A stretch of 43,730 nt of DNA from a virus (taxonomy: Duplodnaviria > Heunggongvirae > Uroviricota > Caudoviricetes), in the IMG/VR virus record IMGVR_UViG_646311924_000020; one strand, given 5' to 3'. The translations under genes and the position numbers were made by a program. The notes below the pieces were generated by a model, which saw nothing but the letters and a program-made list of their open reading frames with translations, made no database searches and was not told the DNA's origin. Below are positions 17,880-20,194 of this stretch, one piece after another; position 1 is the first letter of the stretch, and each line of letters begins with the position of its first letter.

Positions 17880-18492
17880 GCTTAATGCTCCGATAGGTTA
17901 TTTTTTTGCCTTTTTAGCGGCGAAATACGGCGTCCAGTCACCAGTTTCCAGCGCCTTGGCTTTCAATTTGCCGAGGTTGTTGATTACTGCGCCGTTGCTC
18001 CCCTTAACTGTCGGGGTTGTGGCTGCCGTGGTTTTTGCTTTTGGCATGATTCTGGCCTTCGATTCGATACGTTCCAGCAGACGACCAATTGCTACGGGGT
18101 TGGTAGCTTCTGCCAGTTGCTTGCGCAGTTCAGCGTTGCGACCGAGTGCCAGAACAACGATTTCCGGCTTCTCTGACTCAAACAGGATCGCGTTTTGTGT
18201 CTCGATGGGGATTTCCTCGAGTACGGCCTGTTCTGCTTCCTGATAGCCAGGAACTTTGAGAGCCTTAACACGTTGCTGATATTTGGATAATCGCTCTTGA
18301 TAGGCAGCCTGAAGCTCCTGCTCCTTCTGCTTGCGAGCCATCTCCTGTTGCTGGTACTTGCCGTTATCCTCTGCCCACTTAGCCATGCGTTGCTGGTAGA
18401 TTTCTTCATCGAAACCGATGTCCTCATCATCCAGTTTTTGAACCGCCCCGGAAATCCTGGAGACTAAACTCCCTGAGAAAGAGGTAAACAGG

Positions 18493-18819
18493 ATGACTAA
18501 AAATACTCGTTTTTCCCCCGAAGTCCGTCAGCGGGCGATTCGTATGGTTCTGGAAAGTCAGGATGAATATGACTCACAGTGGGCGGCAATTTGTTCCATT
18601 GCCCCAAAGATTGGCTGTACGCCGGAGACTCTGCGTGTCTGGGTTCGCCAGCATGAGCGGGATACCGGGGGCGGTGATGGTGGGCTCACCAGCGCTGAAC
18701 GTCAGCGTCTGAAAGAGCTGGAACGTGAAAATCGTGAACTGCGCCGCAGTAACGATATCCTTCGCCAGGCTTCCGCTTATTTTGCGAAGGCGGAGTTCGA
18801 CCGCCTCTGGAAAAAATGA
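18493..18819 (+). CDS. IS629-like transposase OrfA
   Basis: Identical 108 aa product to copy A OrfA. Confidence 0.9.
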
Positions 18820-19706
18820 TGCCACTGCTGGATAAGCTGCGTGAGCAGTACGGGGTCGGACCGGTATGCAGCGAACTGCATATTGCCCCGTCAACGTATT
18901 ACCATTGTCAGCAACAGCGACATCATCCGGATAAACGCAGTGCCCGTGCGCAGCACGACGACTGGCTGAAGAGAGAGATACAGCGCGTATACGATGAAAA
19001 TCATCAGGTGTACGGTGTGCGTAAAGTCTGGCGTCAGTTGTTACGGGAAGGAATCAGGGTGGCCAGATGTACAGTGGCACGTCTCATGGCGGTTATGGGA
19101 CTTGCCGGTGTTCTCCGGGGTAAAAAGGTCCGTACGACCATCAGCCGGAAAGCCGTTGCCGCAGGCGACCGCGTAAACCGTCAGTTCGTGGCAGAACGAC
19201 CTGACCAGCTGTGGGTGGCTGATTTTACTTACGTCAGCACATGGCAGGGCTTCGTCTATGTGGCGTTTATCATTGATGTGTTTGCCGGATACATCGTGGG
19301 GTGGCGGGTCTCATCGTCTATGGAAACGACATTCGTGCTGGATGCGCTGGAGCAGGCGTTGTGGGCCCGTCGTCCGTCTGGCACCATCCATCACAGCGAT
19401 AAAGGCTCTCAGTATGTGTCACTGGCCTATACGGAGCGACTAAAAGAAGCCGGATTACTGGCATCAACAGGGAGTACAGGCGACTCGTATGACAACGCGA
19501 TGGCTGAGAGCATCAATGGTCTTTACAAAGCGGAGGTAATACACCGTAAGAGCTGGAAAAACCGTGCAGAAGTGGAACTGGCCACACTAACGTGGGTGGA
19601 CTGGTATAACAATCGACGATTGCTGGGAAGGCTGGGCCATACTCCTCCGGCAGAAGCAGAAAAAGCTTATTATGCTTCCATCGGAAACGATGATCTGGCA
19701 GCCTGA
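18816..19706 (+). CDS. IS629-like transposase OrfB
   Basis: Identical 296 aa product to copy A OrfB. Confidence 0.9.
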
Positions 19707-20194
19707 GTTCACAGATAAAACACTCTCCAGGAAACCCGGGGCGGTTCATTTGGCATTCGCGGTGGTTGAGTGATTACCGGCTGCTGCTCGACGGGTTTCT
19801 GAGACTGACGCATCAGCTCTTTCAGCTCGCGGTCTTTCTCTTTAATCGTCTTGCGCAGGTGTTTTACCAGTCCATGCTCTGCGCCATCTTCGCTGGTTGG
19901 CGAATCCAGCTTTTCGTCACCAAAGTAGAATTCCTGTTCTGATTCGTCGTCATCAGTTTCAGTAGCTTCCTCTGCATCATTGCCGGAGGACTCACTGCCA
20001 TCTTCTGTTTCGACTTCTTCAGCCAGTTCGACATCATCAGGAATCTGCTCTGACGCGTCGGTTTCGATTTCAACTTCTGGTGTGTTTTCTGCCATCTGGT
20101 CCATTTGTTACCCCTGTTTACTCGATGTTCAGCCCATCGGAAGGCAATAGGGTGCCAGGCCTCATAAAGACAGCCATTGCACGTTATGGGTTAA

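Follow-up and report, generated by a model that had tools for sequence, protein, structure and literature searches.

An IS629/IS1203-group insertion splits the scaffold gene of the P22-like prophage of Escherichia coli O111:H- strain 11128 and probably prevents virion formation

Scaffold proteins of P22-like phages carry a C-terminal helix-turn-helix "hook," which binds the coat protein. In P22 gp8, the column domain comprises residues 85-162, and the base domain consists of two segments, residues 58-84 and 163-245 (PMC12005531). When P22 lacks the scaffold, proper coat assembly and portal incorporation are prevented and T=4 shells are formed, and when the N-loop alone is lost, scaffold stays trapped inside heads that have shortened DNA and reduced gp16 (PMC12005531). 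In prophages of enterohemorrhagic E. coli (EHEC), inactivation of genes by insertion sequences (ISs) is well documented. Across ten EHEC genomes, that of strain 11128 among them, IS629 predominates over the other ISs (PMC3893438), and the packaging gene nu1 of prophage Sp4 of the O157 strain Sakai is disrupted by an IS (PMC2669165).

The window, that is, the whole stretch of 43,730 nucleotides analyzed here, corresponds to positions 2615984-2659713 of the chromosome of E. coli O111:H- strain 11128 (NC_013364.1). This host bears out an earlier note on the same DNA, which had associated the IS described below with enterohemorrhagic lineages. The window contains the P22-like prophage of 11128, which is of the CUS-3/Sf101 type and is integrated between dacD and sbcB. 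Its genes are arranged in the order small and large terminase, portal, scaffold, coat, an orf69-like gene, gp4, gp10, gp26, gp14, and the ejection proteins, and the head gene order terminase-portal-scaffold-coat-orf69-gp4-gp10 is common to this prophage and P22. On the minus strand, an intact P22-type portal gene encoding 732 amino acids (20195-22393; PF16510, E = 2e-170) lies directly upstream of the scaffold gene, and an intact P22-type major capsid (coat) gene encoding 417 amino acids is located at 16626-17879 (PF11651, E = 1.3e-76). A GC-rich stem-loop followed by a T run (16602-16621, minus strand) was observed just past the coat gene stop codon, at a position matching that of the annotated stem-loop behind P22 gene 5. 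The repressor, replication, Q antiterminator, and lysis genes were all intact by RefSeq annotation, and the remaining prophage genes were likewise intact in the annotation with the exceptions of rha and one small ORF, consistent with the earlier proposal that the regulatory and lysis genes had been kept.

Between gp10 and the tail-needle gene, a homing-endonuclease-like gene with a NUMOD4 domain is present at 12658-13191 (minus strand). This gene is missing in the sibling prophage of the O111:H2 strain 08-3342, in which gp10 adjoins the needle gene; comparison of the two sequences suggests an insertion polymorphism created by a mobile endonuclease. Next to the tailspike gene (2970-4907, minus strand), at the prophage end facing dacD, lies an acyltransferase-family gene (2021-2929, plus strand) that may represent an O-antigen modification (serotype-conversion) module; its equivalent in strain E2863 is broken into two ORFs. 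Genes for tRNA-Thr and tRNA-Asn are annotated at 27875-28030 (minus strand), between the Q antiterminator and the holin gene.

The scaffold gene is split into two fragments on the minus strand. The 5' fragment (codons 1-118; 19752-20104) and the 3' fragment (codons 119-297 and the stop codon; 17898-18438) are annotated in RefSeq as the pseudogenes ECO111_RS14070 ("missing C-terminus") and ECO111_RS14055 ("missing N-terminus"), respectively, and the two ends of the interval 17898-20104 coincide with the stop and start codons of the gene. When 17898-18438 was joined to 19752-20104, a minus-strand ORF of 894 nt was obtained, consisting of 297 codons and a stop codon with no internal stop; the fragments therefore rejoin perfectly in frame, as had been claimed. 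A full-length match to PHROG 648 ("head scaffolding protein"; E = 8.5e-119) was obtained for the restored protein. By BLASTP, residues 150-269 aligned with residues 148-268 of P22 gp8 at 28% identity (E = 5e-7), and phmmer detected the P22 scaffold chains of PDB entries 8i1v (E = 1.4e-3) and 9kyv; a Pfam scan assigned the restored protein to no family. The two proteins, of 297 and 303 amino acids, are ~25-28% identical, with significant similarity in the C-terminal half, and share an acidic N terminus, a basic C terminus, and a gene position between portal and coat. In a global alignment with gp8, G284, D285, Y289, and K293 were retained together with the basic tail. At the nucleotide level, the scaffold genes in 11 deposited phage records, including Huey, E212, Kapi1, CUS-3, and Sf101, shared 98.3-99.7% identity with the restored gene (98.8% for CUS-3 and Sf101). 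In at least 14 genomes of the O111 lineage, a scaffold gene annotated as intact matched all 894 nt at 100% identity. The homology to characterized scaffold proteins and the position between portal and coat support the assignment as a P22-type scaffold gene that the earlier note had made.

The two fragments are separated by a 1,310-bp element of the IS3 family and the IS629/IS1203 group (copy B; 18439-19748, plus strand), which is antisense to the scaffold gene. Following the literature, we take the names IS629 and IS1203 to denote one group, and copy B is 100% identical to copies that RefSeq names "IS3-like element IS1203 family," in keeping with the earlier description of the element as IS629-like. 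Its ends are 5'-TGAACCGCCCCGG...CCGGGGCGGTTCA-3', with terminal inverted repeats identical at 13 of 13 bases and partial matches further in; a length of ~1.3 kb and inverted repeats ending in 5'-TG...CA-3' are those of an IS3-family element. On the plus strand, orfA (18493-18819) encodes 108 amino acids with an HTH_Tnp_1 domain (PF01527, E = 2.4e-12), and orfB (18816-19706) encodes 296 amino acids with the rve DDE integrase core (PF00665, E = 9.3e-28). The two reading frames overlap, as is typical of the family, and the ALIL pseudoknot (RF01497; 18774-18890, plus strand; 121.5 bits, E = 3.8e-32), a signal for programmed -1 frameshifting between orfA and orfB, was detected at the overlap; RefSeq also annotates a "programmed frameshift." The IS looks active because orfA and orfB are intact, the ALIL pseudoknot is present, copy B is identical to a second copy in the window (copy A), and the 11128 chromosome contains 34-37 matches to the IS ends.

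Copy B is flanked by a 3-bp target-site duplication, TTT, at 18436-18438 (left) and 19749-19751 (right). The IS-free sibling prophage of SD134209 carries the empty site CATCCAGTTTTGGCATTCG at this position, which equals the window minus the IS and minus one TTT, and E2863 also carries the empty site. These coordinates and the SD134209 empty site agree with the earlier interpretation of a 1,310-bp IS with a TTT duplication inserted cleanly and simply. Because the element is full length and 100% identical to copy A, the insertion cannot be due to chance. A genome with more than 30 near-identical IS copies, such as that of 11128, offers a classic source of misassembly, so that an IS copy might have been misplaced when the reference genome was assembled. 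However, a misplaced repeat would create neither the perfect 3-bp duplication at both junctions nor the exact in-frame rejoining of the gene, and independent, equally clean IS1203 insertions are found elsewhere in sibling prophages. We therefore consider such an artifact exceedingly improbable. Copy B most probably represents a simple transposition into codon 118/119 of the scaffold gene.

The age of the insertion was evaluated by comparison with other genomes. The left junction of copy B was found in 1 of 5,426 complete E. coli genomes, and the right junction was found, in the same genome set, in 11128 and in one spurious two-piece match. Over 28.9 kb, nothing but copies A and B, three SNPs (14143, 20874, and 28042), and a 1-bp deletion in rha distinguished the window from the SD134209 prophage. 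These comparisons suggest that the insertion of copy B is in all probability recent and private to the strain.

Furthermore, IS1203 copies were located at other positions in sibling O111 prophages: in gp4 in E2863, in rha and twice in the immI region in 2013C-4081, and in ninH in 05-3004; no IS1203 was present within the region compared in 08-3342. In strain 7-55 62A (O111:H8, NZ_CP077506.1), one IS1203 is inserted in the same scaffold gene at nt ~675 with an AGT duplication (4741-6050 of the compared piece; gene-relative orientation as in 11128), and another lies near the small terminase gene. The scaffold gene has thus been split by separate events in at least 2 of about 17 O111-lineage sibling prophages. 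Clean 3-bp repeats (AGT, TGC, GGC, AAG, and GTA) flank five of the seven IS copies in sibling prophages. The other two copies have no matching duplication: one in 2013C-4081 (GGA versus GAC; 26192-27501 of the compared piece) and one in 7-55 62A (TTC versus CTT; 10987-12296 of the compared piece). Their flanking sequences hint at recombination between IS copies or adjacent deletion, not simple insertion. That the IS prefers morphogenesis genes was considered and ruled out, since its copies in siblings were located in rha, in ninH, and in the immI region as well. The pattern is the familiar strain-by-strain erosion of EHEC prophages by IS629/IS1203, without targeting.

Copy A (15260-16569, minus strand) is 100% identical to copy B in the opposite orientation and is flanked by a CAT duplication (15257-15259 and 16570-16572), again of 3 bp. 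It lies 1.9 kb downstream of copy B in the same late operon, between coat and gp4, exactly at the Met5 codon of the 62-amino-acid orf69-like gene (MARTMLYK...). The remnant of this gene is a 58-amino-acid ORF (15083-15259, minus strand) whose start codon, ATG when read along the gene, is provided by the duplicated CAT and is now 1.3 kb away from the native ribosome-binding site; the empty site in SD134209 is TAGAGCATTGTTCG. Any polar effect of copy A would fall on gp4 through gp16. The coat gene and the 3' fragment of the scaffold gene lie between the inverted copies A and B. An inversion between the two copies was ruled out, because the duplications on either side of each copy match (CAT/CAT for copy A and TTT/TTT for copy B) and the intervening segment is collinear with the siblings. 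The rha-family regulator gene (25691-26250, minus strand) is frameshifted, relative to its intact SD134209 allele, by the 1-bp deletion at 26172, which lies in a run of T; apart from the IS insertions, the 28.9-kb comparison showed no further inactivating difference.

The consequence of the insertion for capsid assembly was considered by analogy with P22 gp8. In a global alignment, whose confidence is low around the break, the break between P118 and K119 aligns near gp8 residues 100-101, that is, inside the column domain and between both base domain segments. Because the break aligns with the column domain, neither fragment would keep the complete base-plus-column body of the scaffold. The ORF at 19709-20104 would yield a truncated product of 131 amino acids, comprising 118 native and 13 IS-encoded residues (NEPPRVSWRVFYL); the insertion would thereby part this acidic N-terminal piece from the C-terminal 179 codons, which would be deprived of a promoter-proximal translation start. 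The prophage would be expected to remain SOS-inducible, to replicate, to express its late genes, and to lyse the cell, while the coat protein would mis-assemble without portal incorporation and no infectious virions would be formed. A sensitive blastn search (~65-70% identity) of the NC_013364.1 chromosome detected the coat gene at a single place. Given the break in the column domain and the single chromosomal coat gene of this type, procapsid assembly is likely lost in the 11128 prophage, as the earlier note had proposed; that note did not mention the position of copy A in the late operon, the intact iee gene described below, or the existing RefSeq annotation of the lesion. We thus estimate a probability of about 0.85 for the reading that a recent, private IS629/IS1203 insertion has occurred and that the prophage makes no infectious virions, presumably owing to an assembly defect.

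Scaffold function might nevertheless be supplied by what remains of the gene or by another element. The first in-frame start codon of the 3' fragment, Met136 at 18386, opens a surviving frame of 162 amino acids (residues 136-297), and this product, translated from read-through late transcripts, might suffice for usable procapsids through its coat-binding C terminus. It covers the region homologous to P22 gp8 148-268 and onward, and the P22 fragment 141-303 is known to be assembly-competent, driving shell assembly; the same P22 fragment, however, forms no tetramers (PMC12005531), and the 11128 product would lack most of the column domain as well as the N-loop. In addition, no Shine-Dalgarno sequence was found upstream of Met136 (CAGCAACGCATG), and the minus strand near the left end of the IS contained no promoter-like site facing outward, by which an outward IS promoter driving this fragment was ruled out. 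Usable procapsids from the C-terminal fragment are therefore very improbable. A compatible scaffold or a whole capsid could also be provided in trans by another resident prophage or plasmid, in which case the element would still be packaged and transferred. The Sakai prophages Sp4, Sp9, Sp13, and Sp15 have defects in head formation and were nevertheless packaged, apparently by complementation between prophages (PMC2669165), but Sakai harbors many near-identical lambdoid head modules, unlike 11128, where only one P22-type coat gene is detectable in the chromosome. No genome searched had more than two places matching the scaffold query, and the two fragments explain both places in 11128. Judging from the chromosomal coat search and this scaffold count, complementation from elsewhere in the 11128 genome is unlikely, and we give packaging and transfer by this route very little credence.

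The IS-excision enhancer, IEE, was reportedly discovered by Kusumoto et al. in 2011. Strain 11128 carries an intact iee gene in an SpLE1-like island (ECO111_RS06465; NC_013364.1, 1272620-1274980), whose product is named [quoted passage not shown] in RefSeq. The gene shows one synonymous difference from Sakai ECs1305, and its protein is identical to that product ("IS-excision enhancer IEE"). Acting with the transposase, IEE promotes precise or simple excision of IS629/IS1203v, restoring the interrupted genes bla, stx2, and lacZ (PMC9397093, PMC9943667, and bioRxiv 10.1101/2023.06.07.543989). With the IS transposase intact and a simple insertion flanked by an intact duplication, precise excision of copy B and one TTT would regenerate the wild-type scaffold sequence, and rare IEE-dependent revertant cells of 11128 are plausible. 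The insertion might then act as a reversible lock, with excision in a few cells giving a small subpopulation that releases infectious phage. However, excision occurs at low frequency (PMC9397093), nothing selects for the excision of copy B, the copy A insertion and the rha frameshift would persist, and no empty-site allele is on record from 11128 itself. We regard such a phage-releasing subpopulation as unlikely, and it is more doubtful still that IEE-promoted excision in rare cells, possibly aided by the higher number of templates after induction, seeds infectious P22-like phage. If it did, infectious phage would continue to enter the population from a prophage that its sequence marks as "defective." The intact iee gene makes the scaffold lesion a convenient natural test for the reversion of IS-inactivated prophages.

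Under the reading that we prefer, a recent insertion with loss of virion formation, annotation and phage-induction studies of 11128, the O111 reference strain, should treat its P22-like prophage as morphogenesis-defective, unlike near-identical siblings such as that of SD134209. In silico verdicts of "defective" need experimental support, because head-defective Sakai prophages were packaged (PMC2669165). The lesion is already visible in the public annotation of this genome, which was published in 2009; in it, the RefSeq pseudogenes flank an "IS3-like element IS1203 family transposase." A literature search found no relevant work on the P22-like prophage in 11128 or O111; the 2009 genome paper of 11128, reportedly by Ogura et al., was outside this search. 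More broadly, expansion of IS629/IS1203 erodes EHEC prophages strain by strain, and its targets among the O111 prophages include the scaffold gene, hit twice at different positions, as well as gp4, rha, ninH, and the immI region.

Compared with the closest described systems, the scaffold insertion is real but ordinary. The restored gene closely resembles those of CUS-3/Sf101-type phages; unlike theirs, the gene in 11128 is interrupted and annotated as a pseudogene. [quoted passage not shown] In contrast to these cases, no reversion is on record for the scaffold insertion, which is under no selection of the kind that growth on lactose provides. The IS629/IS1203 insertions of other EHEC prophages have the same length of 1,310 bp, the same TG...CA ends, the same -1 frameshift between orfA and orfB with the ALIL pseudoknot, and the same 3-bp duplication. 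The mechanism is the same in both, and only the target, codon 118/119 of the scaffold gene, and the strain are specific to the insertion described here.
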